A stretch of 64,000 nt of DNA. Origin: Patescibacteria group bacterium. Its GTDB lineage: Bacteria > Patescibacteriota > Patescibacteriia > Patescibacteriales > UBA12075. Position 1 is the first letter of the stretch. Each line of letters begins with the position of its first letter. The position numbers and the translations under genes are program-made. The DNA is taken from NCBI GenBank assembly GCA_018897195.1, contig JAHILH010000006.1, positions 2,152 to 66,151 of the forward strand, given 5' to 3'. Shown here one piece after another: positions 34,499-61,245 of the stretch. A model generated the notes under the pieces. It saw only the letters and a list, made by a program, of their open reading frames with translations, had not been told where the DNA came from and ran no database searches.

Positions 34499-34528
34499 TT
34501 TCAACTTTTTTCTATTATATGGTATAAT
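34499..34528 (+). promoter_or_regulatory. Extended -10 promoter for the pilin gene (weak -35, TGgTATAAT)
   Basis: TG 34520-34521 and TATAAT 34523-34528. This leaves a ~85-nt 5' UTR containing the hairpin AAGTAG-10 nt-CTACTT (34543-34564). Confidence 0.6.
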
Positions 34529-34536
34529 GTGGATAA
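34528..34536 (-). promoter_or_regulatory. Perfect DnaA-box-like 9-mer TTATCCACA (minus strand)
   Basis: The plus strand reads TGTGGATAA and overlaps the last base of the pilin -10 hexamer. Confidence 0.4.
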
Positions 34537-34617
34537 CTAATTAAGTAGGTTTTATAATCTACTTTTAATAAAATAATTTTATCCATTTTCACTGATTTAA
34601 ATTCTAGAATTAAATTA

Positions 34618-35124
34618 ATGAAAATGCGAAAAACAAAATCTATGAAAAAAACCAACGAAAGTGGTTTTACATTGATCGAGTTACTAGTTGTAATCTCTAT
34701 CATTGGCTTGCTGTCAACTATGGCAGTTATTTCTTTAAACAGTGCTCGATCTAAGGCTAGAGATGCTAAGAGAGTTAGCGACATTAAGGGTCTTTCAACT
34801 ATGCTTGAAATGGAAAGAGCTAATCAAGGTGATACAGTTGGAGTTGGCACTTGCGTTCTTGCTGATGCTTTAACTTATACTTGTACCGGCGGTGAGCTTA
34901 CGGCTCAAGTTGCAAACTTTAAAGATCCTGTAACACCAGCTACTGCATGTACCAACACTACTACTACAACTTGTGGTTATTCTATTAGTACGGCAGCGGG
35001 AGCGGCTGCTGCCGCCTATGGTGATTATCAAATCTGCGCCTATCTTGAAAATGGATCTGGTGGATTTGGAGCCGGCTTGATTAGTGTTAAGACTGGTGGC
35101 GTAATGGCGGCTGGTTGTAACTAG
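34618..35124 (+). CDS. Type IV pilin (prepilin with class III signal)
   Basis: Basic leader, then G/FTLIELLVVISIIGLLSTMAVISL. The C-terminal domain has Cys pairs. It has its own extended -10 promoter and a strong terminator. Alternative in-frame starts lie at 34624 and 34642. Confidence 0.8.
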   Translation: MKMRKTKSMKKTNESGFTLIELLVVISIIGLLSTMAVISLNSARSKARDAKRVSDIKGLSTMLEMERANQGDTVGVGTCVLADALTYTCTGGELTAQVANFKDPVTPATACTNTTTTTCGYSISTAAGAAAAAYGDYQICAYLENGSGGFGAGLISVKTGGVMAAGCN

Positions 35125-35145
35125 TTCGATTATTGCCTATCCTTT

Positions 35146-35187
35146 AATCAGTCTAACTCTGAAAAGAGTTAGACTGATTTTTTTTGT
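35146..35187 (+). terminator. Strong rho-independent terminator after the pilin gene
   Basis: Perfect 14-bp stem AATCAGTCTAACTC / GAGTTAGACTGATT, loop tgaaaa, then T8. Confidence 0.85.
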
Positions 35188-35255
35188 GCTATTTTGCAAT
35201 TATTTGATTTATTTTGAGATGCTATTTCTTAATAAAATCAATACAGGTGAATTAC

Positions 35256-35287
35256 TTGATTTTTTTCTACATAAGTGTTATTATAAT
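35256..35287 (+). promoter_or_regulatory. Promoter for lepB: TTGATT-17-(TGt)TATTAT/TATAAT
   Basis: TTGATT 35256-35261, TG 35276-35277, TATTAT 35279-35284, overlapping TATAAT 35282-35287. Confidence 0.5.
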
Positions 35288-35368
35288 TTTATTAAATTAA
35301 ATAAAATTACTTGTTTTATTAATCGTTTTTGCCAATGATTCATTTTTTAGGTAATATTAGATAAACCC

Positions 35369-35932
35369 ATGTTTAAAAATTTCGCTTTATTTGTTTTTGA
35401 GTTACTCAAAATTGTGCTAATCTCACTGGTTATTATCATTCCGGTGCGGTATTTTTTGATTCAGCCTTTTTATGTAAAAGGCGCTTCAATGGAGCCTAAT
35501 TTTCATGATAAAGAATACTTAATTGTTGACGAGATTTCTTATCGATTGAATAGCCCTCAACGAGGTGATATTATTGTTTTTCGTTATCCGCGTAACCCGC
35601 AAGAATATTTTATCAAGCGTTTGATTGGCTTGCCGGGGGAGAAAGTGCAAGTGAAAGATGGTGCTGTTTTTATTTTTAATAAAGAGCATCCGGAAGGATA
35701 TCGTCTTGACGAGGCTTATTTGGGTGATGGTGTGAAGACTTACGGTTTTTCAGAGGATGTGACTACTTTGGGCGATGATGAAATTTACGTTTTGGGAGAC
35801 AATCGTAACGCTTCAAAGGATTCACGAACATTCGGGCCGGTAAACAAAAGTTTCTTAATCGGACGAGTTTTGTTTAGAGGTTATCCGTTCGACAAGATCG
35901 GCACTTTTACAGCGCCACAGTATAGTTTTTAA
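35369..35932 (+). CDS. lepB: Signal peptidase I
   Basis: VKGASMEPNF (catalytic Ser), IKRLIGLPGE (Lys) and GDNRNASKDSR. Confidence 0.85.
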   Translation: MFKNFALFVFELLKIVLISLVIIIPVRYFLIQPFYVKGASMEPNFHDKEYLIVDEISYRLNSPQRGDIIVFRYPRNPQEYFIKRLIGLPGEKVQVKDGAVFIFNKEHPEGYRLDEAYLGDGVKTYGFSEDVTTLGDDEIYVLGDNRNASKDSRTFGPVNKSFLIGRVLFRGYPFDKIGTFTAPQYSF

Positions 35933-35940
35933 TTACAACT

Positions 35941-36109
35941 GTCATTCCCATGAAAATGGGAATCCAGGCGCCACAGATTTTGAATACTTAATTATAGAGA
36001 CTAGTCTTGATAAAAAAATTGATAATAAAAAAAACTTCGTAAATTTTAATTTTCCTGATAGCGAGAGAAATCTACGAGGCACCTGGATCCCCGCCTTCGC
36101 GGGGATGAC
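35941..36109. repeat. ~170-nt MITE-like element with hairpin-forming terminal inverted repeats
   Basis: The left end is GTCATTCCCATGAAAATGGGAATCCAGGCGCC. The reverse complement of the right end is GTCATCCCCGCGAAGGCGGGGATCCAGGTGC. Each end is itself a hairpin, and the differences between the ends are paired (compensatory) within each hairpin. The centre is AT-rich. Confidence 0.55.
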
Positions 36110-36149
36110 GGAGGAATAATTAACTAATTAATATTTAACATAATATAGT

Positions 36150-37529
36150 ATGCCAAAAAAGCCAGGAATTAGTAAAAAACCAATTGTGAAGGAAAAGAAT
36201 AATCCCAAATTTTCTCGTTTACGAGGAATGAAGGATATTTTGATTGACGAATATAAATATTGGGATTTGATTGTGAAGAAGTCAAATAAGCTTGCCAAGG
36301 TTTATGGTTTTAATCGAATTGATACACCGGTAATGGAGCGTTTAGATTTGTATGAGCGTTCAACAGGCAAGGAGACTGATATTGTTTCCAAGGAGATGTA
36401 TACCTTTATCGATAAAGGCGGTGACAAAATCGCTTTGCGCCCAGAGGCAACCCCTGGATTGGTGCGTGCTTATGTCGAGCATGGCATGTTCAATATGCCA
36501 CAACCAGTGAAGACTTACTGGATGGGACCGCTTTTTCGTCATGAAAAACCTCAAGCTGGTCGTTTTCGACAGCACACGCAATTTAACTTTGATATGTTTG
36601 GTGAAGAGAGTCCAGTGGCTGATGCCCAGTTGATTTTGATTGCTTATAATTTTTTTAGTGAATTACAAATTGATACGCAAGTAGCAATCAACAGTATTGG
36701 TTGTCATGAATGTCGTCCAGACTATATCAAGAAATTAACAGATTTTTACAAAGAAAGAGGTAAGAGATCAAAACTTTGTAATGATTGCAAAAAACGTTTT
36801 GTAAAAAACCCTTTACGATTATTGGATTGTAAAGAGCATGACTGCGTTGAAGTTCGTGATGGCGCGCCGCAAATGGTTGATTTCTTGTGTGATGGCTGTC
36901 GCGATCATTTTATTAAAGTATTGGAATATTTAGATGAAATGGAAATTCCGTATAATCTTGAACCAACCCTAGTTCGTGGTTTGGATTATTATAACCGGAC
37001 CGTGTTTGAATTTATTGCCACCGAAGGCAATGAGGCTGATGGTGAAAATAATCCGCACAAGGAAGAGCGCAAGAAAAAGATTTCTATGGGCGGTGGCGGT
37101 CGTTATGACGGCTTAGTTGAGCATATGGGCGGTCGTCCAACTCCAGCGGTTGGTTTTGGACTTGGCGTAGAGCGGGTTGTAATGAAGATTAAGGAATTAA
37201 ATATCCCAATTACCAGAGATACTGAAGAATGTATTTTTGTTGCCCAATTGGGTGATCAGGCGAGACGAAAAACATTTAAGCTTTTTGAAGAAATGCGTAA
37301 GAACGGCTACAAGGTTGCCCAGATGTTTGTAAAAGATAGCTTGAAAGCGCAATTAGAAGAAGCAAATCGCATCGGCGCTAGATTATGCTTGATTCTGGGA
37401 CAGAAAGAACTTTTAGACGGCACAATTATTTTGAAAGACATGGTGTCAGGCACGCAGGAAATTATTGACTACAAAAAGATATATGTAGAAATTGCCAAGA
37501 GATTGGGAGAAGGTGCGACAGCTGAATAA
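36150..37529 (+). CDS. hisS: Histidine--tRNA ligase
   Basis: RGMKDIL, LRPEATPGLVRAY, FRHEKPQAGRFRQHTQFN (motif 2), GGGGRYDGL (motif 3) and a C-terminal anticodon-binding domain. Confidence 0.9.
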   Translation: MPKKPGISKKPIVKEKNNPKFSRLRGMKDILIDEYKYWDLIVKKSNKLAKVYGFNRIDTPVMERLDLYERSTGKETDIVSKEMYTFIDKGGDKIALRPEATPGLVRAYVEHGMFNMPQPVKTYWMGPLFRHEKPQAGRFRQHTQFNFDMFGEESPVADAQLILIAYNFFSELQIDTQVAINSIGCHECRPDYIKKLTDFYKERGKRSKLCNDCKKRFVKNPLRLLDCKEHDCVEVRDGAPQMVDFLCDGCRDHFIKVLEYLDEMEIPYNLEPTLVRGLDYYNRTVFEFIATEGNEADGENNPHKEERKKKISMGGGGRYDGLVEHMGGRPTPAVGFGLGVERVVMKIKELNIPITRDTEECIFVAQLGDQARRKTFKLFEEMRKNGYKVAQMFVKDSLKAQLEEANRIGARLCLILGQKELLDGTIILKDMVSGTQEIIDYKKIYVEIAKRLGEGATAE

Positions 37530-37575
37530 TAAATTTTTTAATTATTAATATAAAACTAGAAGGGTAGGTGTCAAT

Positions 37576-37812
37576 ATGGTTGATTTTAAAAGAAACAAGA
37601 ATGAAAGTTTTGAAGGGTTTTTGCGAAGATTCAACAAGACTTTGATTAAAAGTCGTAAATTGAACGAAGTTCGTAAACGTAAATACGTTTCGAAGAAAAA
37701 GAACAAAATCCAGCAAAAAGAAAAAGCTTTGATTGGTTTGAAACTTCAAGAAAAGAATGAATACTTGAAGAAGATTGGTAAACTAAAAGAAGAATCACGC
37801 GGTAAATGGTAA
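37576..37812 (+). CDS. rpsU: 30S ribosomal protein S21
   Basis: 78 aa and very basic. KRNKNESFEGFLRRFNKTLIKSRKLNEVRKRKY matches the S21 pattern (..ENESFD.ALRRFKR...K.G.L.E.R.R..Y). Confidence 0.7.
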   Translation: MVDFKRNKNESFEGFLRRFNKTLIKSRKLNEVRKRKYVSKKKNKIQQKEKALIGLKLQEKNEYLKKIGKLKEESRGKW

Positions 37813-37834
37813 AAATTTTATCGTTATAAAAAAA

Positions 37835-37878
37835 GGAACCCGGTTCCCCATATCGGGGTGACCGGGTTTCTTGTTTTT
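37835..37878 (+). terminator. Rho-independent terminator after rpsU
   Basis: GGAACCCGGTTCCCC-atat-CGGGGTGACCGGGTTTC (about 13 pairs with one bulge), followed by ttgttttt. Confidence 0.8.
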
Positions 37879-37893
37879 AATACGGCGGCGGAG

Positions 37894-37932
37894 TCTCCCT
37901 CTCCTGGATAGGAGAGGGTTGGGGTGAGGTGG
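37894..37932. repeat. GC-rich palindromic intergenic element (same family)
   Basis: TCTCCCTCTCCTGGATAGGAGAGGGTTGGGGTGAGGTGG. The single difference from the 34396 copy lies in the hairpin loop. Confidence 0.75.
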
Positions 37933-37981
37933 AAAACGCGCGTAAATAACAAAAATTAATTTTTATTATTAAACTTAATAT

Positions 37982-38434
37982 ATGGAAAATTTAACAGAAA
38001 AAATCAACGCTGATATTAAGACGGCGATGATTGCTAAAAGCGAGTTGGAACTTTTGACTTTGCGGATGTTGACGGCGGCCTTAAAAAACAAGCGCATCGA
38101 TCTAGGCAAGGAAGCAGTTTTGAGCGATGAAGATGTTGTCGCTGTTATTCAAACTGAGATTAAAAAACGCAAAGACTCAGCCGAGGCTTATTTGGCTGGT
38201 AATCGCGCTGACTTAGCTGACAAGGAAAAAGCGGAGATTGCGATTTTGGCAAAATACATGCCGGAGCAAATGAGCGCGGAGGAGTTGGAAAAAATTACCC
38301 AAGATACTATTGCGCAATTGGGCGCAAGTGGAATGAAAGATTTTGGCAAGGTGATGGGTGTGGTGATGAGCAAGGTTAAGGGTAAAGCGGACGGTAATCA
38401 GGTGAATGTGGCAGTGAAGAAATTGTTGGGTTAA
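37982..38434 (+). CDS. GatB/YqeY domain protein
   Basis: LTLRMLTAALKNKRIDL, IKKRKDSAEAYLAGNRADLADKEKAEIAILAKYMP and MKDFGKVMGVVMSKVKGKADGNQVN. Confidence 0.8.
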   Translation: MENLTEKINADIKTAMIAKSELELLTLRMLTAALKNKRIDLGKEAVLSDEDVVAVIQTEIKKRKDSAEAYLAGNRADLADKEKAEIAILAKYMPEQMSAEELEKITQDTIAQLGASGMKDFGKVMGVVMSKVKGKADGNQVNVAVKKLLG

Positions 38435-38453
38435 TCACTAGAATCATGGATAT

Positions 38454-38491
38454 AAAAAAAAGAGTCGCGAAATTTCGAGACTCTTTTTTTA
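38454..38491. terminator. Bidirectional terminator between yqeY-like (+) and rel (-)
   Basis: A7, then AGAGTCgCGAAATTTCGaGACTCT, then T7. Confidence 0.7.
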
Positions 38492-38501
38492 TTGAATAAA
38501 T

Positions 38502-39965
38502 TTATTTTATTCCCGGAATCATCTTTCTTAATTTTTCAAAGCGAGAAACTCTTTCAGCATGTTTGATTTTTTCTTTCGCTCTGTGCGTTTTGACAAATTT
38601 CAACCAGTTTTGATTTGGGGCTTTGCGATTTTTTTGAATCGTGATTTCGACTAAGTCGCCATTTTTTAAGACCTGATCTAGTGGGGCGATTTTGTCATTG
38701 ACCAGAGCACCGGTCATCTTGTTGCCGATTTCAGTGTGGACCAAGAAGGCAAAATCGACCGGAGAAGAGCCTTCGGGGAGGTCGAAGACATCGCCTTTTG
38801 GGGAGAAGACAAAAATGCGATTATGAAAAACGTTAATTTTTAATTCATTAATAAAATCATCAGTCGTTTCTGATTGTTGCTGAATTTTTAAAATTTCTCG
38901 AACCCAATTTGGTTGTTTGCTTTCCTTTTCACCTCTTTTTTGTTTGTAGTGCCAATGAGAAGGGACGCCATAAAGAGATTCTTCTTGCATTTCCATGGTG
39001 CGGAGCTGAAATTCGGTGGCTTTGTTTTCTGGTCCAAAAACAGTGGTGTGAAGAGAGCGATAACCATTTGGTTTTGGGACGGCAATGTAATCTTTGAACC
39101 GATCAGATTTTGGTTTCCAGATCGAATGAATAATACCTAATGTTTTGTAGCAATCGGAAACAGACGGAACAATAATGCGCAAAGCAAATACGTCATAAAT
39201 TTCGTCGAAGCGACGATCCTTGGTTTGCATTTTTTTATAAATACTATAGAGATGTTTAAAGCGACCTTCAATTTTGTAATTAATACCTTGGTCTAATAAT
39301 TTTTGTCCCAAAATATCTTTGATTTTTTGGATGTATTGGTTTCTTTCAGTTCTTTTTTCAACCTCGTATTTATATTCCAATTTTTTGTAGTCTTCTGGGT
39401 AAAGATATTTGAAGCAAATATCTTCCATTTGCCATTTGAGACGCCAGATGCCGAGTAGGCCGGCAATCGGGACGTAGATTTCCATGGTTTCCTTGGCAAT
39501 TCGGATTTTTTTCTCATCGGGCTGAGCATCAAGAGTACGGAGATTATGAAGACGGTCGCAAAACTTAATCAAGATGACGCGCACGTCTTCGGCCATGGCT
39601 AAGAACATTTTACGCAAAGATTCACGGTGTCTTTCCACGCCCCGGTATTTGATTTTACTTAATTTGGTAATACCTTCAACTAAAAAGGCGATTTCTTCGC
39701 CAAAAAGTTCTTTGACGTCTTCTAGAGTTCTGTCCGTGTCCTCAGGGACATCGTGAAGAATGCCGGCAATGATGGTACTTTGGTCAGCCTTAATTTGGGC
39801 TAGCATGAAAGCGGTATGCAGACAGTGCTGAATATAAGGCTCACCAGTTTTTCGTTTTTGGTTGCCGTGCGCCTCGTCAGCGAACTCATAAGCAAACTTA
39901 ATAAGATCCACATCGGTGTTGGGATTATTCTCCTTGGCCTTTTTGATAATTTGTTCAATAGTCAT
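38502..39965 (-). CDS. rel: RelA/SpoT-family (p)ppGpp synthetase/hydrolase, short form (HD-synthetase-TGS, no ACT)
   Basis: HD domain HGNQKRKTGEPYIQHCLHTA..ILHDVPEDT, synthetase NGYRSLHTTV and TGS IFVFSPKGDVFDLPEGSSPVDFAF. Confidence 0.85.
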   Translation of the reverse strand: MTIEQIIKKAKENNPNTDVDLIKFAYEFADEAHGNQKRKTGEPYIQHCLHTAFMLAQIKADQSTIIAGILHDVPEDTDRTLEDVKELFGEEIAFLVEGITKLSKIKYRGVERHRESLRKMFLAMAEDVRVILIKFCDRLHNLRTLDAQPDEKKIRIAKETMEIYVPIAGLLGIWRLKWQMEDICFKYLYPEDYKKLEYKYEVEKRTERNQYIQKIKDILGQKLLDQGINYKIEGRFKHLYSIYKKMQTKDRRFDEIYDVFALRIIVPSVSDCYKTLGIIHSIWKPKSDRFKDYIAVPKPNGYRSLHTTVFGPENKATEFQLRTMEMQEESLYGVPSHWHYKQKRGEKESKQPNWVREILKIQQQSETTDDFINELKINVFHNRIFVFSPKGDVFDLPEGSSPVDFAFLVHTEIGNKMTGALVNDKIAPLDQVLKNGDLVEITIQKNRKAPNQNWLKFVKTHRAKEKIKHAERVSRFEKLRKMIPGIK

Positions 39966-39995
39966 TTGCAGTCTTTTAGTATTTTATGCTATAAT
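39966..39995 (+). promoter_or_regulatory. Extended -10 promoter for the 40-51 kb operon: TTGCAG-18-(TGc)TATAAT
   Basis: TG 39987-39988 and TATAAT 39990-39995. It is the only good promoter match I see before 51.1 kb, and the gaps between the eight downstream genes are 4-30 nt. Confidence 0.55.
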
Positions 39996-40072
39996 CAATA
40001 TAATCATAATATTATAAAATTGTGAATAAGTCAATTTGATATTTATCAATTGCCGATTTGTAATATTGCTTA

Positions 40073-42754
40073 ATGCTTGTCAAAAAACACAATAAAAAAT
40101 TCTTGTTAAGAGCAGCTAGTCTGGGTATTTTTATATTTCTAGGCGCTGTTTTTTTATTGGGAAATGTTAATTTATCTTTGGCGGCAACAGCTGATGAATT
40201 AGCCTGGAATGGTCAGCAAGCTCAATTTGAACAGCAGACTGGTCTGTCTTCAACTAATCCTGTGATTGTGGTGACGAGAATTATCCAAATATTTTTAGGC
40301 TTCCTGGGTTTTATTGCAGTTATTTTAATAATTTATGCTGGTTTTTTATGGATGACTAGTGCGGGGGATGCGGATAAGGTTAAGAAGGCCAAGGATATTC
40401 TTAAAAATGCCTTTATCGGTTTGATAATAATCCTGTCTTCGGTTGGAATTGTTACTTTTATTTTAAATATGCTTATCAATGATAACGGTTCTGGCAGTGG
40501 CAATGGCGCTGGTGGCGGACCTGGTAATGTGCCACCAGGAACAGGGGCAATCGGCAATTGTGCGATTGTAGACTATTATCCAGCGGCCAATCAGCGCGAG
40601 GTGCCGAGAAATTCAGTAGTATTGGTAACTTTTCGTGAGGCATTCAAATTTGATACAGTGGCTGACAATAATTTAGACATCAATACCAGTAATGTAAAAT
40701 TATTCAATAAATGTAATGATACTTGCCAAGTTAGCACGGGTAAGGGTTGCGATGCTTGCTTGGTAGAGGCGACGGCGACATCAACAGACGACAACAAAAC
40801 ATTAGTTATAATGCCAAAGGCTTATCTTGGTTCGCCGACTGAAAATGTGAATTATTACATGGTTATGAATAATGGCATTCAGAATAATAAAGGGAAGGGC
40901 ATTTTTGGTAACTGTACTCCGGATTCAGCAGCTTGGTCTTTTGAGGTGAACACAATGTTGGATTTGGATCCACCTCAAGTTTTAAAAAGAGATCAGGGGG
41001 GCGTTTTCCCTTTGCCAGATAGTCAAAAGGATGTACCTTTGACAAATACAGCCGCCAAGGCGGTCGGAGGAATTACAGTTAATGATATTAATGTTAAAAC
41101 TTTGGTAAAGGCTAGTATTGCAAGTGTTGTAAAAAATCCTGCTAACGCTGGATGGGGCAATATTGATAAAAATTTAAGCAATATTAATAATGGCTGCCAG
41201 GCGAGCCAGATAAAAATTGGCGTAAATGCTGCCTTGACGGCAACGCTAAAGGTTGGAACTGCCAACGCAGGAGTTGGTAAGATTAGTGATGATAAGAAAG
41301 TTTTTAATTTTGATTACTGTGATTTAAAAATTGTCCTTGAAAATGATAAAAATTTTCTAACTGAATGCGGAACAGGTGGTTGTGTTTGGGACATGAGCAT
41401 TACGCCTTATCAAGAGCCTGATTATTTAATGATCGGAAGTTATCAATATATTTTTGTAAATTCAGGCACTAATTCTAATGAAATTGCCCTTGGAGCCAAT
41501 CTACTGACCAAAAATAGCATTGCTGCGGCGATAGCAAGTAAGAATTATTCAGATGTTACGGCTACTGTTTTAGCCAATATTGTAACATTGACTGCGCAAA
41601 AAGCGGGCAATGTCGGCAATGGTATAAGTATTTCCGTTAGCAATCCAAATCTTTTTACTGTGACGGCAATGTATGGCGGAGCGGACTTAAATGACAATGT
41701 TGACGTTAAGGGAGTGCGAGATGAGCCGCGTAATGCGATTATTAAGATGAATTATAATGATCAAATGTTGCCGATCAACGTTTCCGGAGAGGCGACTGTT
41801 AACTCTTCTATTTTTGTCCAATGCGTAAATGCGGGCAATTGTAATGATGCTAATTATTTTTTTGATTGCAATGCCGGCAATAAATGTGTGAAAGGTAAGT
41901 TTAAAATTTCTAATCAATATAAGACAGTGGAGTTTCAGAGTAATAATGAGTGTGGTGTGAATAGTTGTGGTGAAAAAATTTACTGTTTGCCGGCTAATAC
42001 TGAATTACACGTCGGTATGAAGGCGGCAACGCTGGCTGTTTGCGCCAGTGACGGCGATTGCACAAGTAAAAATCCTTTTAACAAATGTGTTGGCGGTCAT
42101 TGTCAGGACGTAACTCTTGGCAAGAACTATCCCTTAGCAAACACAAGTTTCGACGGCTTAATGGATAAAGCAAGGAACTCACTTGATGGTAATCGCAATG
42201 CCTTGGCAATCGGTCCGGTAGCTTTCTATAATGAAAATACCACCCTCGGCTTGGGTGATAGTTTTGAATGGTTATTTTTTATTACTGATAAAATTGATTT
42301 AACTCCACCAAAGGTTGTTAGCACTTTGCCGGCAGGTGGAGGCGCCCCTATTGCAGAGCCAGTTAAAATGAGTTTTAGTAAGATAATGATGTCCTCAAGT
42401 CTTATTCCGGGTTATGTCATGATTCCTGATATGTCCAACAATGACAATGAAATGAAGCACAAAACTCTTAATATTTGGGCGAAGAGTGGTTTTCCAATCG
42501 GTTATTGGGTGACAAGTGAAGATAGTTATGACGCAATGCAGATCGGAAGAACGAATGTGAATATTAATCATTCTGATTTTGATGATTATAATAACTATCG
42601 TGCACAGTCTGGGTCAGGAATTAAAGATATTTATCAGAATTGTTTTAAGCCAAGTGACAAAGTTTCACCTAACTGCACGGCTAATGGTAAACCGTCTTGT
42701 TGTAACGGTGTGGCAACTGATGCTTTAAACAATGAAGGAAATTGTGCTAATTAA
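40073..42754 (+). CDS. Giant surface protein 1: VirB2/TrbC-like pilin-type N-terminal module plus Ig-like/Cys-containing ectodomain
   Basis: Signal peptide, then PVIVVTRIIQIFLGFLGFIAVILIIYAGFLWMTSAGDADKVKKAKDILKNAFIGLIIILSSVGIVTFILNML (two helices) and a Gly-rich linker. Ig-like segments follow (DYYPAANQREVPRNSVVLVTFRE; PPKVVSTLPAGGGAPIAEPVKMSFSKIM). Confidence 0.65.
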   Translation: MLVKKHNKKFLLRAASLGIFIFLGAVFLLGNVNLSLAATADELAWNGQQAQFEQQTGLSSTNPVIVVTRIIQIFLGFLGFIAVILIIYAGFLWMTSAGDADKVKKAKDILKNAFIGLIIILSSVGIVTFILNMLINDNGSGSGNGAGGGPGNVPPGTGAIGNCAIVDYYPAANQREVPRNSVVLVTFREAFKFDTVADNNLDINTSNVKLFNKCNDTCQVSTGKGCDACLVEATATSTDDNKTLVIMPKAYLGSPTENVNYYMVMNNGIQNNKGKGIFGNCTPDSAAWSFEVNTMLDLDPPQVLKRDQGGVFPLPDSQKDVPLTNTAAKAVGGITVNDINVKTLVKASIASVVKNPANAGWGNIDKNLSNINNGCQASQIKIGVNAALTATLKVGTANAGVGKISDDKKVFNFDYCDLKIVLENDKNFLTECGTGGCVWDMSITPYQEPDYLMIGSYQYIFVNSGTNSNEIALGANLLTKNSIAAAIASKNYSDVTATVLANIVTLTAQKAGNVGNGISISVSNPNLFTVTAMYGGADLNDNVDVKGVRDEPRNAIIKMNYNDQMLPINVSGEATVNSSIFVQCVNAGNCNDANYFFDCNAGNKCVKGKFKISNQYKTVEFQSNNECGVNSCGEKIYCLPANTELHVGMKAATLAVCASDGDCTSKNPFNKCVGGHCQDVTLGKNYPLANTSFDGLMDKARNSLDGNRNALAIGPVAFYNENTTLGLGDSFEWLFFITDKIDLTPPKVVSTLPAGGGAPIAEPVKMSFSKIMMSSSLIPGYVMIPDMSNNDNEMKHKTLNIWAKSGFPIGYWVTSEDSYDAMQIGRTNVNINHSDFDDYNNYRAQSGSGIKDIYQNCFKPSDKVSPNCTANGKPSCCNGVATDALNNEGNCAN

Positions 42755-55203: not shown

Positions 55204-56004
55204 ATGGCGACCAAACAAGAAAGAAGGTTACATTATACGATTATCCTGCTGGCGATATTGCTGGCGGCAGCCCTTGGTGGCTGTGGTTATTATTACAACA
55301 AGATTGCTGGCTTTGAAAGTCAGAAAACAGAAGACATTGTAAAACTGAACAGGGAACATGCAACTGAATTGGCGGTTGCCAAGGGCAATCTTAAGGCAGC
55401 CGAAGAGAAATTAACTGTGGCTGAGGGAAAGATTGCCAAGTTTAGTGAGAAAGAGACGGCGTATAAGGAGAAGATTGACGAACTTAGGGGGGATGTAGGG
55501 CCTGGTAAACAGAAACAGGCATTAGCGCCAGCCAAGAAATCAACCCCAGTTGCATCGCCTGAAAAAAAGAAACACACAATCGTAGCAACTAATTCGCAAA
55601 AGACTATTGTTGCCGCGAAAACGATAAAGACTGTGCATAAAACCAGGCCGGCCAAGAAAATGAAGCCCCGTCACATTAAAAAGGCTCATAATCACAAAAA
55701 TGTTGGCCATATTAGCAAGAAGAGTAGTCATGGCAAAAAGCATGCGCACATCAACAAGAAGACTAGCCATGCCAAGAAGCAGCACAAGAGCACAATGAAG
55801 AAACATGAAAAAATTCAGACCGTTGTCAAAGACTTGTCTTTGTCAGCTCTTTGTGAAGAGCAGAGCGTGGATCGTCCTTTTTTCCTACAGTTGACGAAGG
55901 ATGCGGTTACGTATGGCTATACTGCAAAAGTGTGGGAAGTACAGCATGGTTCGACCAAAAATATCCAGATCTTGCTGACGAGTTCGGAAATGCCAAATTC
56001 GTAA
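55204..56004 (+). CDS. Membrane/lipoprotein-anchored coiled-coil protein with a Lys/His-rich basic region (islet gene 2)
   Basis: N-terminal helix ending in the lipobox-like LGGC, a coiled coil, then KKAHNHKNVGHISKKSSHGKKHAHINKKTSHAKKQHKSTMKKHEK. Canonical AAGGAGG lies 6 nt upstream of the ATG. Confidence 0.5.
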   Translation: MATKQERRLHYTIILLAILLAAALGGCGYYYNKIAGFESQKTEDIVKLNREHATELAVAKGNLKAAEEKLTVAEGKIAKFSEKETAYKEKIDELRGDVGPGKQKQALAPAKKSTPVASPEKKKHTIVATNSQKTIVAAKTIKTVHKTRPAKKMKPRHIKKAHNHKNVGHISKKSSHGKKHAHINKKTSHAKKQHKSTMKKHEKIQTVVKDLSLSALCEEQSVDRPFFLQLTKDAVTYGYTAKVWEVQHGSTKNIQILLTSSEMPNS

Positions 56005-56094
56005 TCAGACAAGTCTGTGTTTAAGATTTAATTTCTGAAGTTGGCTTGTATAATCTCGTAATCAAAGGGAAGCTTTGAATAAGATATAGCAAAG

Positions 56095-56116
56095 ACTAAG
56101 AGCAAAAGTTCTTAGT
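56095..56116 (+). ncRNA. Hairpin copy 1 of a three-member family with invariant GAGCAAAAGTTC core
   Basis: ACTAAGA-gcaaaagt-TCTTAGT (7-bp stem); core at 56100-56111. Confidence 0.35.
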
Positions 56117-56194
56117 ATTATATGTCAAAATTCAAGCAACAACTATCTAAATCCCTTAAAAATAGTTTCGAATAAACCGCAAAATTAGAAGTGG

Positions 56195-56226
56195 GTGACG
56201 CTAGGAGCAAAAGTTCCAGGTGCCTC
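56195..56226 (+). ncRNA. Hairpin copy 2 (same invariant core, different stem sequence)
   Basis: GGTGACGCTAGGA-gcaaaagt-TCCAGGTGCCTC, an imperfect stem with G-U pairs; core at 56205-56216. Confidence 0.35.
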
Positions 56227-56293
56227 ATTATTCAGAGATGTACGCGGTGATCAAAAAGTTTAAGACAGTTCTGGAAATGGGCTGTTATACAAT

Positions 56294-56343
56294 GAGTGGT
56301 TACTTAAGAGCAAAAGTTCTTGGTGCCACTCATTTTTTATTTT
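56294..56343 (+). ncRNA. Hairpin copy 3 with an extra outer stem and T-run (terminator-like)
   Basis: GAGTGG-ttac-TTAAGA-gcaaaagt-TCTTGG-tg-CCACTC, then attttttattttt; core at 56308-56319. Confidence 0.4.
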
Positions 56344-56361
56344 TAAAATTTGTATGATATA

Positions 56362-56712
56362 ATGAAGTCTATGAACAAACAACGATTATTATTAATATTT
56401 ATATTGATTTTTTTATCCAATATTACCAGTGGATGTGTTATTGATAACAATAGCAACAAAGAGCAGGTGCGTAGTAAAAATGTTGATGGCAAAACTGTGG
56501 GCTACGATAAAACGCTAAGCAAGAATATTGCGGTGAAAAAAGTAACCATACTAGATGGTTGCATTGGTTGTGGTGTTTGCGCAAAGATTGACCGGGAACA
56601 TTTTGTAATAGCTGCTCATCGGGCAAAAGTAATATCTCAAAATAATTTAGAGGCGCCATTGTTGACGGCAGCGATTAAGAATTGCCCAACCGCCGTAATT
56701 GCGTTGAATTAA
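56362..56712 (+). CDS. Small single-cluster ferredoxin-like protein with lipoprotein-type signal sequence
   Basis: LLLIFILIFLSNITSGC (lipobox-like ITSGC), then CIGCGVCAKIDREHF ... AIKNCPTAVI (CxxCxxC...CP). I prefer the ATG at 56362 or 56371 over the TTG at 56350. Confidence 0.6.
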   Translation: MKSMNKQRLLLIFILIFLSNITSGCVIDNNSNKEQVRSKNVDGKTVGYDKTLSKNIAVKKVTILDGCIGCGVCAKIDREHFVIAAHRAKVISQNNLEAPLLTAAIKNCPTAVIALN

Positions 56713-56715
56713 TTT

Positions 56716-57210
56716 ATGTTCCTAGAAACCCACACCTTCTTCGCCAACTTGAGTTGGATATTGTTGATTATTATTCTTGTCTCACGACCCTTGGCAGAAA
56801 TTACCAAAAATAAGATCTTATTTCGAGTTTTGCGCTATCGAAAACAATTGGGTGTAATCTGTGGATTAGCAGCTATTGTCCATGTACTATTCTTTTTACT
56901 TGGTAGCGGCTTGGCAGGAATTTATTTTTTAGATGCCGAGTTTTGGTCATTGCAAAATTTCTATGGCTGGGGGAGTTTAGCCGTGGTGGCGATGCTGTTT
57001 CCGCTTCTTACTTCTAATAATTTTTCCTTGCATTTTTTTGGCAAATACTGGAAAAAAATTCAGCGGGGAACCTATTTGGTTTTTATCGCAACCGCTATTC
57101 ATATCGCCATGGTCAAAGATGAGTGGTTTGAGGTGATGGGGCCGGTGCTTATTTGGTTATTTCTATGGACCTGGGCAGAGCTTAGGAGACGAAAAAGGTT
57201 TAAAGTTTAA
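56716..57210 (+). CDS. MsrQ/YedZ-like ferric-reductase-type heme-b membrane protein
   Basis: About five TM helices. The pattern VSRPLAEI..RYRKQLGVICGLAAIVHVLFFL ... LLTSNNFSLHFFGKYWKKIQRGTYLVFIATAIHIAM parallels E. coli MsrQ (TPLAR..R.RR.LG......H ; TS....R.LG..W..L....Y......H). Starts 3 nt after the ferredoxin gene. Confidence 0.55.
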   Translation: MFLETHTFFANLSWILLIIILVSRPLAEITKNKILFRVLRYRKQLGVICGLAAIVHVLFFLLGSGLAGIYFLDAEFWSLQNFYGWGSLAVVAMLFPLLTSNNFSLHFFGKYWKKIQRGTYLVFIATAIHIAMVKDEWFEVMGPVLIWLFLWTWAELRRRKRFKV

Positions 57211-57221
57211 TATTTAGCAAT

Positions 57222-57884
57222 ATGAGCATTTTTAAACATAAGGCTATTAAAAAAGTTTTAGCACTGACATTTTTTTTGTTTTTGATGGTGAGCATCTTTG
57301 GGGCCTTGTATTATTTTCGTGAGACTGTTTATTCTTCAGTGGATCAATTGGCTTTTTTTATAAAAGAGCATATTTTTGTTGGAATTCTCGCATTTGTTCT
57401 CATTTCTATTTTGGCCGTTGTTTTTTCTCCGCTCTCTAGTCTGCCGTTGGTGCCATCTGCCATTATTGCCTGGGGTGATTTTTGGACCTTTGTTTTTTTA
57501 TTATCAGGCTGGTTTATTGGATCCTTGGTTGGTTATTTTTTGGGGTATTTTACACGAGAGGGGGTTTTGGAAAAATTTTTTTCACTTAAAAAGATTGAGT
57601 ATTATAAAAGTCAAATTTCGCAGGATGCACAATTTTTATTAGTTTTGATTTTTCGTTTAGCCATTCCTTCTGAGATTACCGCTTATACATTGGGAATTGT
57701 GCGATATGATTTGAAAAAGTTTATGATCATTGCTGTTCTTTCAGAATTACCCTTTGCCTTGTTGGTTGTTTACTCTGGCAGGGCGGTCTATGATGGCAAT
57801 ATTTTTCTTTTTATTGGTATTATTACCTTTGCCTTGGTTTTTATTACATTTTTCTCCCTTTTGCTTAAGAAGAGATTTAAATAA
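57222..57884 (+). CDS. TVP38/TMEM64 (DedA-related, VTT-domain) membrane protein
   Basis: Polytopic, with FSPLSSLPLVPSAIIAWGDFW and FRLAIPSEITAYTLGI strings typical of the family. Confidence 0.55.
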   Translation: MSIFKHKAIKKVLALTFFLFLMVSIFGALYYFRETVYSSVDQLAFFIKEHIFVGILAFVLISILAVVFSPLSSLPLVPSAIIAWGDFWTFVFLLSGWFIGSLVGYFLGYFTREGVLEKFFSLKKIEYYKSQISQDAQFLLVLIFRLAIPSEITAYTLGIVRYDLKKFMIIAVLSELPFALLVVYSGRAVYDGNIFLFIGIITFALVFITFFSLLLKKRFK

Positions 57885-57907
57885 AAATGGTCAATGAGCT
57901 TGGTAAC

Positions 57908-57916
57908 TTATCCACA
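57908..57916 (+). promoter_or_regulatory. Perfect DnaA-box-like 9-mer TTATCCACA
   Basis: One nucleotide upstream of the -35 of the promoter at 57918-57946. Confidence 0.4.
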
Positions 57917-57917
57917 A

Positions 57918-57946
57918 TTGACCAGATTTTAAATCTGGTGTATAAT
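57918..57946 (+). promoter_or_regulatory. Near-consensus promoter TTGACC-17-TATAAT with a perfect 8+1+8 palindrome in the spacer
   Basis: TTGACC 57918-57923 and TATAAT 57941-57946. The palindrome CCAGATTT-t-AAATCTGG occupies 57922-57938. TTATCCACA at 57908-57916 abuts the -35. Confidence 0.65.
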
Positions 57947-58263
57947 ATAGTTATATCTTTGTAGGGCTGTGCAAAAGAGTAACAGTGCTACGAAGAAAAT
58001 CGCTAAAAATAAGCGAAACAAAACAAAAAGCAAAATAAAAATCAAAAAATAAAAACAAAATTGACAATTAGATATTCTTGAATTGGTATAAGGAATTTTT
58101 CGGTAAGAGGGGATTGAAGTGTGTGATTTGAGTCAAAACTAAATAGGGATAAATTTTTTTTGAAAATGCTTTTTGTTGAAAGGCATTTTTTTTATTGCTC
58201 TGCCTTACGAATACACAAACCTCTTACAAAAGTGATTTTGTAGAAGATTCGTTGATTCGTGGA

Positions 58264-58324
58264 AAATAAATCCCCATGCAATCGGCAGAATGCTTATAAA
58301 AAGATTTAATTAATAAATCCCCAT
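58264..58324 (+). repeat. Exact 14-nt direct repeat AATAAATCCCCATG (2 copies, 47 nt apart) in the 5' region of paralogue 1
   Basis: Copies at 58264-58277 and 58311-58324. Each ATG opens only a 5-7 codon frame. The string resembles the real start context of paralogue 2 (TTATTCCCATGCAA). Confidence 0.6.
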
Positions 58325-58439
58325 GATTTCCATTGTCTAGGCATAGACGGTGGGCAGGTCGAAGTCAGGGTTTTAAAAGCTACATCCTTTATAGGATGTA
58401 TATAAGCGCTTATATCTTAACTAAAATAAAACAAAAATT

Positions 58440-59480
58440 ATGAAACAAAAAAAATTCATAGCCTCGTTGGCGATTGCTTCTTTGGTGTTGGCCGTAGTTG
58501 GTTATTACCCAGGAGTAAACAGCGCCCAAGCCGTCAATTCGTTAACGGCCGCTAAGGCTCTATTGAGTGAGTCAGCCCCTGGTACGGCTGCAACAACGAC
58601 TATTTCTTTTACCTCAGGAACATCAACTGATGCGACTGGTTATTTCGAAGTGGTTATGCCAGCTGGTTTTGGCGATGTCTTGGTTGGTAACGTGACTTGT
58701 TCAACTGGTGCTGCTAGCGCGTTTAACACAGAAACAATTCGTTGTACTGGTGTTCAAGCCGCTGGTGTTAAAACTATTACCTTGGCCAATACAACTAATC
58801 CGACAGCAACTACAAGTCAAGTTATTAATATTGCTCACTACGATGTGGCTGGAAATTTAGCAGAACGGGTACAGGTTGTTGTACAAATCATTGATAATGT
58901 TTGGATGACAGCGCGTGTTGACGCTACCTTAACATTCACAGTGGCTGGTATGAATAAAGATGCCACTGTTAACGGTGCTGTTTGTACTGCTACCACGTCA
59001 GCAACTTCGACACCGTTTGGAACCTTAATTCCAACTATTCCATCAACTGTTTGTCAGGAATTGAAGGTGACAACTAATTCATCTGCTGGTTTTGTAGTCA
59101 CAGTCGAACAGGATACAGAAATGACATCTGATGGTAACGACAATATTAATAGCTTTAAAGATGCTGCTGATGGTGCTGGTTTGGGCGTAGCTGAGGCATG
59201 GGTTTCTCCAAGTACAGTTCTTGATAATGATTGGACTTATGGTCACATGGGTTTAACTTCAGATGATACAACTGTTGTTGGCATGGATTATAATGGTACA
59301 AAGTATGCCGGTCTTATTGGTTCAAGCGTTATGAATGTGATGACACATGATGGTCCAGCTGATGGATCAACTCAAGATAAGGGTAGAGTGGCAGTAGCCT
59401 ATACTGCGGAAATTAACGCCTTGCAACAAGCGGGTGATTATGAAAACACACTGACTTATATTGCGACACCGACTTACTAA
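58440..59480 (+). CDS. Secreted beta-rich surface protein, paralogue 1 (WxL-like C-terminal signature)
   Basis: Signal peptide ending SAQA/V and N-terminal LLSESAPGTAATTTISFTSG. The C-terminal half reads DATLTFTV..TPFGTL..ELKVTTNSSAGFVVTVEQD..YGHMGLTSDD..AGDYENTLTYIATPTY. Own promoter and terminator. Confidence 0.6.
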   Translation: MKQKKFIASLAIASLVLAVVGYYPGVNSAQAVNSLTAAKALLSESAPGTAATTTISFTSGTSTDATGYFEVVMPAGFGDVLVGNVTCSTGAASAFNTETIRCTGVQAAGVKTITLANTTNPTATTSQVINIAHYDVAGNLAERVQVVVQIIDNVWMTARVDATLTFTVAGMNKDATVNGAVCTATTSATSTPFGTLIPTIPSTVCQELKVTTNSSAGFVVTVEQDTEMTSDGNDNINSFKDAADGAGLGVAEAWVSPSTVLDNDWTYGHMGLTSDDTTVVGMDYNGTKYAGLIGSSVMNVMTHDGPADGSTQDKGRVAVAYTAEINALQQAGDYENTLTYIATPTY

Positions 59481-59509
59481 TATTTGATTGCCCTCGGGCA
59501 TGATTTTGC

Positions 59510-59549
59510 TCCCTCCTTGGGTTAATAACCCGAGGAGGGGTTTTGTTTG
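59510..59549 (+). terminator. Strong rho-independent terminator after paralogue 1
   Basis: CCCTCCTTGGGTT-aat-AACCCGAGGAGGG (13 pairs including one G-U), then ttttgtttg. Confidence 0.8.
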
Positions 59550-59683
59550 TCCACAGGTCTAATGAACTTTATTTTTTTAAATGAAATATTCAGCCATTGC
59601 TTAATAATTTTTTTTATTTTTTGTTACTAATTTTAGCCCACCGTTGGGCTTTTATTGTTTTCATTTTACTTTAATAATATGGT

Positions 59684-59713
59684 ATGACAAAATTGGTAAA
59701 AATATGTTATAAT
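59684..59713 (+). promoter_or_regulatory. Extended -10 promoter for paralogue 2: ATGACA-18-(TGt)TATAAT
   Basis: TG 59705-59706 and TATAAT 59708-59713. The string AATGTTATAATAA.TTTAG.AA is shared with the promoter at 61337-61366. Confidence 0.55.
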
Positions 59714-59777
59714 AAGTTTAGTAAGATTTCTCTGTGGACAACATGGAGAAGGTCGAAAATCTTGCGAAAATAAAAGC

Positions 59778-59893
59778 AGTTAAAGTTTAAAGAGGCTTTG
59801 ATTGTTAAAAAAAATATAATATCTAAGATTTAAAGAGGTTTTGGATATTTAAAAAAAATATTTAAAGTTTAAAGAGGCTTTAATTATTTAAAA
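59778..59893 (+). repeat. Three ~40-nt direct repeats (core TTTAAAGAGG(C/T)TTT) in the 5' UTR of paralogue 2
   Basis: Cores at 59786, 59829 and 59868 (spacing 43 and 39 nt), each followed by an A-run. The perfect hairpin CGCTATAGC-caaa-GCTATAGCG follows at 59896-59917. Confidence 0.6.
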
Positions 59894-60083
59894 TCCGCTA
59901 TAGCCAAAGCTATAGCGCGACGAGGAAAAACAAAATAGTTTAAAATAAACTATAAACACAAACAAAAATAAGCTTATTTTTTAATTGATTGCCTAAATAA
60001 CAATCAATTTATCCCTTATAAATTTAAAATAAATTTAATTAATTAATCTGCCTCGGCGGATTGATTGCTTGAATTTTATTCCC

Positions 60084-61130
60084 ATGCAAAAAACAAAAAC
60101 AAGAAGATTTCTTGTTGCCTTAGTAATATTTTCTATGGTAACAACTTATTTGACAATGCCTACGGCAAAAGCGGCTTCATTTGATTCTGCAAAAGACACA
60201 ATCAGTGATTCAGCACCGAGTATTGTTACAACACATACTATCACAGTCAATCTAGGCACCGCTTTGGTAGCTGGTGATTATGTTAGTATTGATTTCGGCT
60301 CCTTTACTGGTGCTGTGGAAGGCAATACTAGTTGTGCTGCTTTTGGTGATTCAACTGCAACCACTACCGTTGACGGAGTTGGTTGTGAGGTTAACACTGC
60401 AGTTAGCTCAACAACAGATCAGACAATTACTGTTACTGGTGTAACCAGTCCAGTGGCTGGTGGTTACTCTGTTTACGCTCGAACTTATAATGCTAGTGGC
60501 GTAGAAATTGAAAATGCGCAAATGATTGTGTATTTAGTAGATGCTGTAACTGTTACCGCTCACGTTAACGCAACTTTGACATTCGGAGTTGCTGCAATTA
60601 ATGCTGGCGTTGAGATTAATGGCGCAACAACAACTGCTACTTCAACAGCAACTGCAGTTCCTTTCGGAACTTTGAGTTCTGTGGCACCTTCAGTAGTGGG
60701 CCAAGAGTTATCAGTAACAACTAATGCTAGTAATGGTTTTAGTGTGACTGTTCAACAAGACGGTGAAATGGTTTCAGCTGCCGGAGCTAACATTAACAGC
60801 TTTAAAATGGCTGCTAATAACGCTGGTTTAGCGACACCTGAAGTTTGGTCTGATCCAGTGGCAACATTGGGCAGTGATAATACTTATGGTCACATGGGTC
60901 TTACCACTGATGATTCTGATGGTGCTATCGGAACAGCCTTTGGTGGTGCTAAGCTTGCAGGTTTAGCTGCAACTGCTCCTATGGAGATTATGTCTCACAC
61001 TGGTGCAGCTGATGGTTCTACACCTGATAAGGGTAAAGTTAGAGTGGCTTACGAAGTTGGTATTACTGACTTACAAGAAGCTGGTGATTATCAATCAACT
61101 TTGACTTACGTTTGTACACCTACTTACTAA
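60084..61130 (+). CDS. Secreted beta-rich surface protein, paralogue 2
   Basis: About half of positions are identical to paralogue 1 by eye (NATLTFGV..VPFGTL..ELSVTTNASNGFSVTVQQD..YGHMGLTTDD..AGDYQSTLTYVCTPTY). I prefer the ATG at 60084 (MQKTKTRRFLVALVIF) over the TTG at 60069. Confidence 0.6.
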   Translation: MQKTKTRRFLVALVIFSMVTTYLTMPTAKAASFDSAKDTISDSAPSIVTTHTITVNLGTALVAGDYVSIDFGSFTGAVEGNTSCAAFGDSTATTTVDGVGCEVNTAVSSTTDQTITVTGVTSPVAGGYSVYARTYNASGVEIENAQMIVYLVDAVTVTAHVNATLTFGVAAINAGVEINGATTTATSTATAVPFGTLSSVAPSVVGQELSVTTNASNGFSVTVQQDGEMVSAAGANINSFKMAANNAGLATPEVWSDPVATLGSDNTYGHMGLTTDDSDGAIGTAFGGAKLAGLAATAPMEIMSHTGAADGSTPDKGKVRVAYEVGITDLQEAGDYQSTLTYVCTPTY

Positions 61131-61156
61131 TATTTAGTAAATAGATTCTATATAGT

Positions 61157-61194
61157 AAAAACTCCTCCGGTTTTACCGGGGGAGTTTTTGTTTT
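61157..61194 (+). terminator. Strong rho-independent terminator after paralogue 2
   Basis: AAAACTCCTCCGG-tttta-CCGGGGGAGTTTT, then tgtttt. Confidence 0.8.
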
Positions 61195-61236
61195 ACCTTC
61201 GCCACGCCGTAGCTTTTTTAGCGTAGGCGGGTTTTT

Positions 61237-61245
61237 TTATCCACA
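61237..61245 (+). promoter_or_regulatory. Perfect DnaA-box-like 9-mer TTATCCACA
   Basis: Just downstream of the paralogue-2 terminator and ~115 nt upstream of the -10 at 61361. Confidence 0.4.

Follow-up and report, generated by a model that had tools for sequence, protein, structure and literature searches.

A 9-mer identical to the DnaA box recurs beside pilin and surface-protein genes in a Patescibacteria contig and its relatives

Introduction

What are three perfect copies of the DnaA-box 9-mer TTATCCACA doing in a stretch of Patescibacteria DNA that contains no replication origin, and which protein is likely to bind them? The stretch, hereafter the window, comprises 64,000 nucleotides of contig JAHILH010000006.1 (positions 2,152 to 66,151). 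An earlier note on its sequence had observed that the copies stand only at promoters and terminators of genes for surface structures, and had offered two readings: DnaA acting as a transcription factor, or an unrelated regulator using a look-alike site. The predicted target genes in the window are those of a type IV pilin, two paralogous secreted proteins with two immunoglobulin-like (Ig) domains each, and a giant protein with fibronectin type III (fn3) domains.

Bacteria of the Candidate Phyla Radiation (CPR), or Patescibacteria, have very few transcription factors. Almost none have been cultured, and to our knowledge nothing is known of their gene regulation. A 9-bp site conserved over dozens of species beside the genes for pili and dominant secreted surface proteins offers a testable handle on how these organisms control gene expression.

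Judged from sequence, TTATCCACA is the most conserved non-coding word beside pilin and major surface-protein genes, both in this ultra-small bacterium and in dozens of relatives. That the sites are functional protein-binding elements appears nearly certain, and their tie to surface-structure genes, as proposed earlier, is strongly supported by conservation over ~52 species and by pilin loci. We estimate a probability of about 0.55 that TTATCCACA and its conserved variants TTGTCCACA and TTATGCACA are DnaA-bound cis-regulatory sites of abundant surface-protein genes. The sites, their positions and their conservation are observed; from them we infer which protein binds, whether it represses or activates, and how this relates to physiology.

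Results and discussion

Exact boxes in the window are confined to intergenic DNA

An exact search of both strands found three copies of TTATCCACA in the window, precisely where they had been located by eye and nowhere else. All three are intergenic, and the intergenic share of the window, previously put at about 8%, measures 8.3%. Within this fraction, Markov models of order 0-3 predict 0.04-0.10 copies, corresponding to a Poisson P of 1e-5 to 1.6e-4 for the three seen. In an unbiased ranking of the window's 4166 intergenic 9-mers, the box comes 7th, with one repeat element and poly-A words above it. Over the window as a whole, the expectation is 0.81, in agreement with the earlier estimate of fewer than one (about 0.8); the shuffled background proposed at the time gave three or more copies in 9 of 100 shuffles, so the count alone is not significant.

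The window also holds 27 one-mismatch sites. Two of these, copies of TTGTCCACA at 59547-59555 (plus strand) and 59733-59741 (minus strand), had been listed alongside the perfect copies, and we find both in place. The CCACAG extension is present, as described, at three of these five sites. One-mismatch matches do occur in coding DNA, as the earlier note had remarked, for example TTTTCCACA at 19891-19899 on the minus strand.

These sites do not mark an origin, where boxes would cluster by an AT-rich unwinding element next to dnaA/dnaN at a GC-skew switch; on this point we concur with the earlier assessment. They lie far apart (1.7-23 kb), except for inverted pairs 150-186 bp apart around two promoters; a tblastn search of the window found no dnaA, neither dnaN nor any other origin gene appears among the window's Pfam-annotated open reading frames (ORFs), and GC skew stays positive over all 64 kb, with no switch.

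The box is enriched beside surface-protein genes in related loci

Our comparative set came from a profile-guided scan with homologues of the first of the two secreted proteins (paralogue 1), which yielded 56 loci from ~52 species, one genome per species, mostly Falkowbacteria and Parcubacteria with GC contents of 30-60%. Together with the window, these amount to ~860 kb. ORFs were called, and each base was classed as coding, as intergenic DNA flanking a gene of this family, or as other intergenic DNA.

Family-flanking intergenic DNA contains 61 exact boxes in 62 kb, where 0.5-2.0 are expected (P < 1e-60, locus-wise Markov models). By comparison, other intergenic DNA holds five in 56 kb (0.4-0.6 expected) and coding DNA two in 742 kb (~6 expected), for a total of 68 over the 56 related loci and the window. 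When 9-mers upstream of family genes of 320-430 aa are counted with no prior, none is as frequent as TTATCCACA, which occurs in 53 of 79 such regions and ranks above all A/T-rich and poly-A/T words. Where a box precedes some other gene, as in the few cases seen, the product is again of a surface type, such as the Laminin_G_3 protein of L038 (L-numbers denote related loci). Around the 68 boxes, base composition does not depart from background except for T or G at position -1 and G or A at +1. The signal is therefore the 9-mer itself, and not the shared ancestry of a longer block.

Pilin genes show the same association. Across 80 broadly sampled metagenomic pilin loci, the 300 nt ahead of each gene (23.7 kb in total) hold seven exact boxes, where 0.25 are expected (P = 9e-9), as against five in the remaining 277 kb, where 2.6 are expected. 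Enrichment near pilin and surface genes of relatives, which the earlier note had named among its tests, was found at both gene sets.

Other classes of recurrent word were considered and rejected. DNA uptake sequences (DUS, also uptake signal sequences, USS) number hundreds to thousands of copies per genome, at about one per kb and with coding DNA included; the three copies in 64 kb seen here, with two in 742 kb of coding DNA and five in 56 kb of non-family intergenic DNA, do not resemble these or a Chi-like word. The Tn5 mosaic end contains TTATACACA, a one-mismatch variant of the box. An adapter artefact is nonetheless rejected, as the sites are contig-internal, come from many independent assemblies and have no adapter context.

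Promoter and terminator positions of the sites are conserved

At the pilin gene (34618-35124, plus strand; 168 aa, with a prepilin N-methylation motif matching Pfam N_methyl), the exact box lies on the minus strand at 34528-34536 and reads TGTGGATAA on the plus strand. It covers the expected start site and the final base of the -10 element of a promoter at 34500-34528 (plus strand; TTCAAC, 17 nt, TATAAT, with the -10 at 34523-34528), the last T of TATAAT being the base common to both. This promoter and the hairpins at ~58162-58195 and 61161-61236 described below were read directly from the letters. The pilin -10 is conserved in relatives, and the arrangement TATAATGTGGATAA is kept in three loci whose pilins are 71-75% identical (L143, L144, L150). 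A pilin locus at 58% identity has no exact box at this place and carries TGTTGATAA 8 nt past the -10; another, at 54% identity, has an exact box 259 nt upstream.

The remaining sites cluster around the paralogues. The second exact box (57908-57916, plus strand) lies 24 nt past the stop codon of an upstream VTT-domain gene and ends 1 nt before the -35 of a TTGACC-17-TATAAT promoter (57918-57946, plus strand), a promoter type that recurs in relatives. From this promoter an A-rich stretch (57953-58195, plus strand) is presumably transcribed, with a terminator-like hairpin and T run at its end (~58162-58195). Paralogue 1 itself (58440-59480, plus strand; 346 aa, secreted, comprising two Ig-like beta-sandwich domains) is followed by an intrinsic terminator at 59510-59546 (plus strand; stem 59510-59540 plus T tract), and the plus-strand TTGTCCACA runs on from that T tract. 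The promoter of paralogue 2 (59684-59713, plus strand; ATGACA-18-TATAAT with extended TG) is followed, 19 nt past its -10, by the inverted TTGTCCACA, which reads TGTGGACAA on the plus strand and falls inside the P2 loop of a leader RNA element. Paralogue 2 (60084-61130, plus strand; probable ATG at 60084, with the ORF open from a TTG at 60069) is succeeded by two terminator-like hairpins with T runs (61161-61236, plus strand), a region that the terminator scan lists in part. The third exact box (61237-61245, plus strand) comes directly after the second T run, 91 nt before the -35 of the giant fn3 gene's promoter (61337-61366, plus strand; TTGCAA-18-TATAAT, TG). The layout described previously, with a base shared with the pilin -10, a 1-nt gap to the -35 and boxes after terminators, was correct; to it we add a sixth site, a copy of TTATGCACA on the minus strand at 61387-61395 (TGTGCATAA on the plus strand), 20 nt past the -10 of this third promoter.

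Three related contigs, L139, L140 and L141, whose encoded proteins match paralogue 1 at 88%, 63% and 58% identity, retain every site from the paralogue-1 box to the sixth while the surrounding sequence differs. The junction TTATCCACA-N-TTGACC is kept in all three and in L016, with unrelated upstream flanks. The post-terminator TTGTCCACA is kept as TTGTCCACA in L139, L140, L141 and L142, and the G at position 3 is therefore itself conserved. Past the paralogue-2 -10, TGTGGACAA is kept in L139, L140 and L141, and L006, L019 and L035 have an exact TGTGGATAA at the place equivalent to 59733-59741. L141 has an exact box after gene 2, at the place equivalent to 61237-61245, and keeps TGTGCATAA ~20 nt past the -10 of the giant gene. 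In the window's subclade, two consecutive promoters each lie between an upstream sense box and a weaker inverted box after the start, 186 and 150 bp apart. The earlier caution that only perfect sites carry weight went too far, as four or five relatives preserve both TTGTCCACA sites in that form.

These data bear on whether the matches could reflect chance, the shared ancestry of paralogous flanks or an element acting at the RNA level, which we now consider scarcely credible. Chance would account for the non-significant whole-window count; ancestry might explain why the two TTGTCCACA sites, the fourth and fifth, flank tandem paralogues; and the location of the fifth inside the loop of a conserved leader-RNA hairpin recalls the DnaA-RNA interaction proposed in E. 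coli (PMC10989985). Against this, 61 boxes stand where 0.5-2 are expected, in independent species with unalignable flanks, and the identical word occurs at unrelated pilin promoters. Boxes also lie upstream of promoters and after terminators, outside transcripts, and the occurrence of both orientations argues against a purely RNA-level role. Comparative counts, conservation in relatives and the pilin loci together effectively refute all three versions.

Boxes lie at the upstream edge of intergenic regions and vary mainly at positions 3 and 5

Across the related loci, boxes keep close to the upstream end of the intergenic region, with a median fractional position of 0.19 (Kolmogorov-Smirnov P = 6e-8). 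They either follow the stop codon of the preceding gene by 2-66 nt or lie between -3 and +16 nt of the point where a terminator T tract ends. Counted over -8 to +20 nt around such T-tract ends, 11 of the 68 boxes are included, compared with 3.5% of intergenic positions drawn at random. Sense boxes outnumber inverted ones by 42:16 (P = 9e-4). The distance from the box to the next strong promoter is bimodal, at either 0-20 nt (the window, L016, L013 and others) or ~100-175 nt over very AT-rich DNA, and a search across loci for one fixed distance found none. Variable spacing to the -10 and the presence of boxes in both orientations rule out an alternative-sigma -35 element.

This placement raises the possibility that DnaA binds, but that the boxes serve mainly as roadblocks or insulators at the end of the upstream unit, or titrate DnaA, with an occupancy modulated by read-through from very active genes. 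Such a role would suit boxes that occupy the first fifth of the intergenic region, adjoin stop codons and T tracts, are biased in orientation relative to transcription and stand at a loose 0-175 nt from the downstream promoter, and E. coli provides precedents at the asnC terminator and datA. We nevertheless judge it distinctly improbable as the main function. The boxes are specific to regions preceding surface-protein genes, whatever gene lies upstream; in the window's subclade the gap between box and -35 holds constant at 1 nt, and at the pilin gene the box lies over the -10, both of which are initiation-control positions. As for titration, one box per site removes little DnaA.

One-mismatch variants enriched beside family genes differ from the box mainly at positions 3 and 5 (TTGTCCACA, TTATACACA and TTATGCACA). 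These are enriched 8-14 fold (TTGTCCACA 4:1, TTATACACA 8:1), whereas changes at positions 2, 4 and 8 are not enriched, indicating intolerance there. A position-6 variant, TTATCAACA, is likewise enriched. An excess of TTATCCCCA was traced to a separate start-codon motif. In three loci from Lloydbacteria and relatives (L047, L052 and L053), the only ones with clear tandem arrays, three to four boxes are arrayed head to tail in 10-11-bp phase, reaching the -10, and there is a weak overall excess of second boxes at +10/+11 and +21.

We also observed that TGTTGATAA, the reverse complement of TTATCAACA, recurs inverted 12-18 nt downstream of exact boxes (L021 11169, L025 2409, L038 9688, L145 2387 and 34450-34458 of the window). 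The word may represent a second half-site, or else be recognized by another protein.

DnaA is the favored candidate binder

Domain IV of DnaA recognizes this 9-mer as a monomer. Such a binder would fit an asymmetric site of 9 bp whose every position is the same in deep lineages and over a two-fold range of GC content, and equally the looseness at positions 3 and 5 and the occasional arrays in helical phase. Furthermore, a resident DnaA with a canonical domain IV would be expected to occupy these sites whatever their purpose.

If DnaA is indeed the binder, the layout in the window suggests how it might act at each promoter. At the pilin gene, a protein bound over the -10 and start would occlude RNA polymerase, consistent with repression. 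At the unit upstream of paralogue 1, a box set against the -35 (about -45 to -37) would allow the bound protein to touch RNA polymerase, as at E. coli nrdA. For paralogue 2 and the giant gene, the post-terminator box and the weaker inverted box 19-20 nt past the -10 would flank the promoter, and this pair could block read-through, initiation or both. Surface-protein output would be tied to the replication state, because DnaA level and nucleotide state follow the replication cycle. More speculatively, and at somewhat less than even odds, DnaA may have been recruited as a master regulator of the cell surface in Parcubacteria, and perhaps in the wider CPR. The production of pili and adhesins, and with it attachment to the host, would then be coupled to the replication cycle, and some boxes would double as terminator-adjacent roadblocks or even act in leader RNAs.

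Several observations weigh against DnaA as the regulator. Other surface-protein genes of the window (TSP3, Big_5 and type IV secretion system (T4SS)-pilin-like) have no box. With box-promoter distances from 0 to ~175 nt, no single initiation-control geometry fits all loci. Most boxes are solitary: a second box matching at least six of nine positions stands at +10/+11 for 13 of 86 exact boxes. The classic relaxed DnaA consensus, TT(A/T)TNCACA, is loose at positions 3 and 5 and strict at 4, 6, 7 and 8, and so does not tolerate the position-6 change of TGTTGATAA, which recurs beside exact boxes and takes the place of the box at one pilin promoter. Some bacteria, such as Thermotoga, use a different DnaA box, and a tblastn search with E. 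coli DnaA found no dnaA in the window or the fetched related loci. Finally, chromatin immunoprecipitation sequencing in E. coli indicates that DnaA favors box pairs 2-3 bp apart, with 13 of 32 consensus single boxes bound (PMC11317965). Most boxes here do not follow this paired-box rule, which is E. coli's and may not hold in other phyla.

The main rival to DnaA, which we hold to be rather unlikely, is some other DNA-binding protein, specific to the lineage, with the 9-mer as its operator and the likeness to a DnaA box superficial. The candidates are a 70-aa MerR-type helix-turn-helix (HTH) protein, BldC-like and with no effector domain, or a stand-alone paralogue of DnaA domain IV. In favor of the former, a conserved ORF of 68-73 aa, matching Pfam MerR and MerR_1, lies directly upstream of gene 1 in 19 of the 56 loci. 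A separate regulator would also suit a site specific to one surface-gene regulon and not to the replication and nucleotide genes of model DnaA regulons, as well as the TGTTGATAA variants and inverted pairs at variable spacing. On the other side, the MerR-like gene is missing from the 64-kb window, as it is from over 20 loci that carry boxes and were covered with 10-kb flanks; the window's genome may carry a copy elsewhere. Classical MerR dimers bind palindromes in the promoter spacer, in contrast to the single asymmetric 9-mer seen here in either orientation. A MerR/BldC operator would go with a cognate regulator gene and have a palindromic or direct-repeat site in the promoter; on both counts the window's sites do not resemble one. 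More generally, nine identical positions across GC contents of 30-60% and lineages as deep as Falkowbacteria and Lloydbacteria are better explained by a universal, slowly evolving binder, and these sites would in any case be bound by a resident DnaA whose domain IV is canonical, even if another factor bound them too.

The MerR-type ORF is found between a leader motif, AAAGGTCGA (see below), and family gene 1, at L009 6136-6351, L006 9753-9968, L014 9758-9964 and in 16 further loci. Its product is a candidate local regulator.

Comparison with known DnaA-regulated systems

DnaA is well known to act as a transcription factor or roadblock through its boxes; what is proposed here would be a new regulon with unusual targets. 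Full-text literature searches returned no paper linking DnaA boxes with Patescibacteria or CPR, or with these genes. The sites resemble DnaA-controlled promoters of E. coli (dnaA, mioC, nrdA, polA, fliC and others) in having the identical 9-bp box TTATCCACA beside the -35 or over the start. Reported DnaA-regulated promoters of E. coli include nrdA and that of the flagellin gene fliC (PMC11317965), the latter, like the pilin gene, encoding a surface filament. In contrast, sites bound in vivo in E. coli are mostly pairs and the regulon there centers on replication and nucleotide metabolism, whereas the boxes here are mostly single and accompany pilin and secreted surface proteins, with conservation that spans a whole candidate class.

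The roadblock effect at asnC reportedly depends on box orientation, going by a 1989 title. Boxes here similarly lie at or just after intrinsic terminators, adjoin T tracts and are biased in orientation. A DnaA roadblock at the E. coli asnC terminator is credited to Schaefer and Messer (1988, 1989, as cited in PMC11317965 and PMC10950094); in our loci, unlike at asnC, the association follows the downstream gene family and not the upstream gene.

The datA and DARS1/2 loci of E. coli and the clusters of B. subtilis comprise three or more boxes (~100-1000 bp) in a defined arrangement. They share with the window high-affinity boxes in intergenic DNA far from oriC, but the window's sites are single and kilobases apart save for the inverted pairs, and with at most two boxes per promoter region, a cluster of the datA/DARS type was rejected. 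In Caulobacter, the DnaA regulon includes gcrA, ftsZ and podJ, providing an example of DnaA as a cell-cycle transcription factor beyond replication, with polarity and envelope functions among its targets. Caulobacter belongs to another phylum and its sites are degenerate, in contrast to those here, and we know of no link there to pilin or to secreted Ig-like proteins.

If DnaA does bind, these sites would constitute the first predicted regulon in the CPR radiation, and a replication initiator controlling the surface of an episymbiont would be unusual. If it does not, a new regulator would have a recognition sequence identical to the DnaA box, implying cross-talk with replication control.

Genes around the sites

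Pfam-annotated genes of the window include a type IV pilus assembly set (PilM, PilB, a receiver-only protein and PilC), together with FtsK, a metallo-beta-lactamase (MBL)-fold protein, the pilin, signal peptidase, HisRS and RelA/SpoT. Several giant Ig/fn3/TSP3 surface proteins are also encoded, then YbeY, FtsA and FtsZ, and at the far end the two paralogues, followed by the 2079-aa fn3 protein, whose gene begins at 61513 (plus strand) and extends past the window end at 64000. Homologues of the pilin numbered 5428. Paralogue 1, which has no Pfam match, gave 428 matches, common in Parcubacteria, and is 44% identical to paralogue 2. Its AlphaFold (AF2) model (predicted local distance difference test score, pLDDT, 83) has a signal peptide and two beta-sandwich domains. 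Among solved structures, two-domain adhesins and BslA come closest in fold, in keeping with a protein secreted to the surface.

Related loci (L003-L058) have a conserved layout in which a giant protein of 2000-3200 aa sharing a domain with the paralogue family comes first (for example L006 1-9219, L031 1-9702 and L012 2-9307) and is followed by one to three tandem paralogues of 340-385 aa, often with a ~600-aa family member ~5 kb further downstream. This order is reversed in the window, where the giant gene (61513 onwards; 2079 aa in L001) comes after the paralogues and not before them.

Leader RNA and other intergenic elements

The leader element of paralogue 2 spans 59721-59765 (plus strand). 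It follows a TGTTATAAT promoter and consists of a helix, P1 (5′ arm 59721-59729, 3′ arm 59757-59765; GTAAGATTT / AAATCTTGC in the window), a variable hairpin, P2 (59730-59748), and an invariant single-stranded AAAGGTCGA between P2 and the P1 3′ arm (AGGTCGA, 59750-59756). Single-stranded AAAGGUCGA is invariant in the leader RNA, in addition to which the fifth box site occupies the P2 loop. The element also occurs at 58356-58362, at L006 11164-11240, L009 7734-7810 and L021 11348-11425, and in ~20 other loci, often with a palindrome, AAAAATAAGCTTATTTTT, after it. In intergenic DNA, AAGGTCGA is found 44 times in sense and twice in antisense.

By direct helix search, P1 reaches at least 7 bp, with compensatory changes, in many loci (control median 5 bp), and L140 and L141 show covariation in P2. 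Alignment-based folding of the motif with MAFFT/RNAalifold returned no structure, the length of the inner hairpin being variable. Rfam gave no match over the window at the gathering threshold, and none of note at E <= 1 over 57850-61550.

Between the box-adjacent TTGACC-17-TATAAT promoter and the paralogue-1 leader are short repeats of the TATAG(T/C)A type, an A-rich, G-poor stretch of ~220 nt and a terminator-like hairpin. This unit (window 57918-58195, L009 5806-6015, L014 9349-9560) is conserved in layout but not in sequence, and may be a small RNA or an attenuated leader.

Start codons of second-type paralogues lie in a C-rich context, TTTTATCCCCATGC, with no Shine-Dalgarno sequence, in 16 loci (TTTTATTCCCATGC at 60075-60086 in the window; also L004 2181, L007 3288, L021 11544 and others). 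In the window's paralogue-1 leader, AAATCCCCATG occurs twice (58262-58274 and 58316-58328), each time before a mini-ORF of 5-7 codons. The word differs from the DnaA box by one mismatch, so that naive one-mismatch counts are inflated.

A GC-rich palindromic repeat, CCTCTCCTGGACAGGAGAGGG(TTGGGGTGAGG), follows the MBL-fold gene (34399-34432) and the HisRS gene (37897-37918). It is the most over-represented intergenic word of the window, with a copy kept in L150 at ~845-880, and is probably a terminator-like repeat element.

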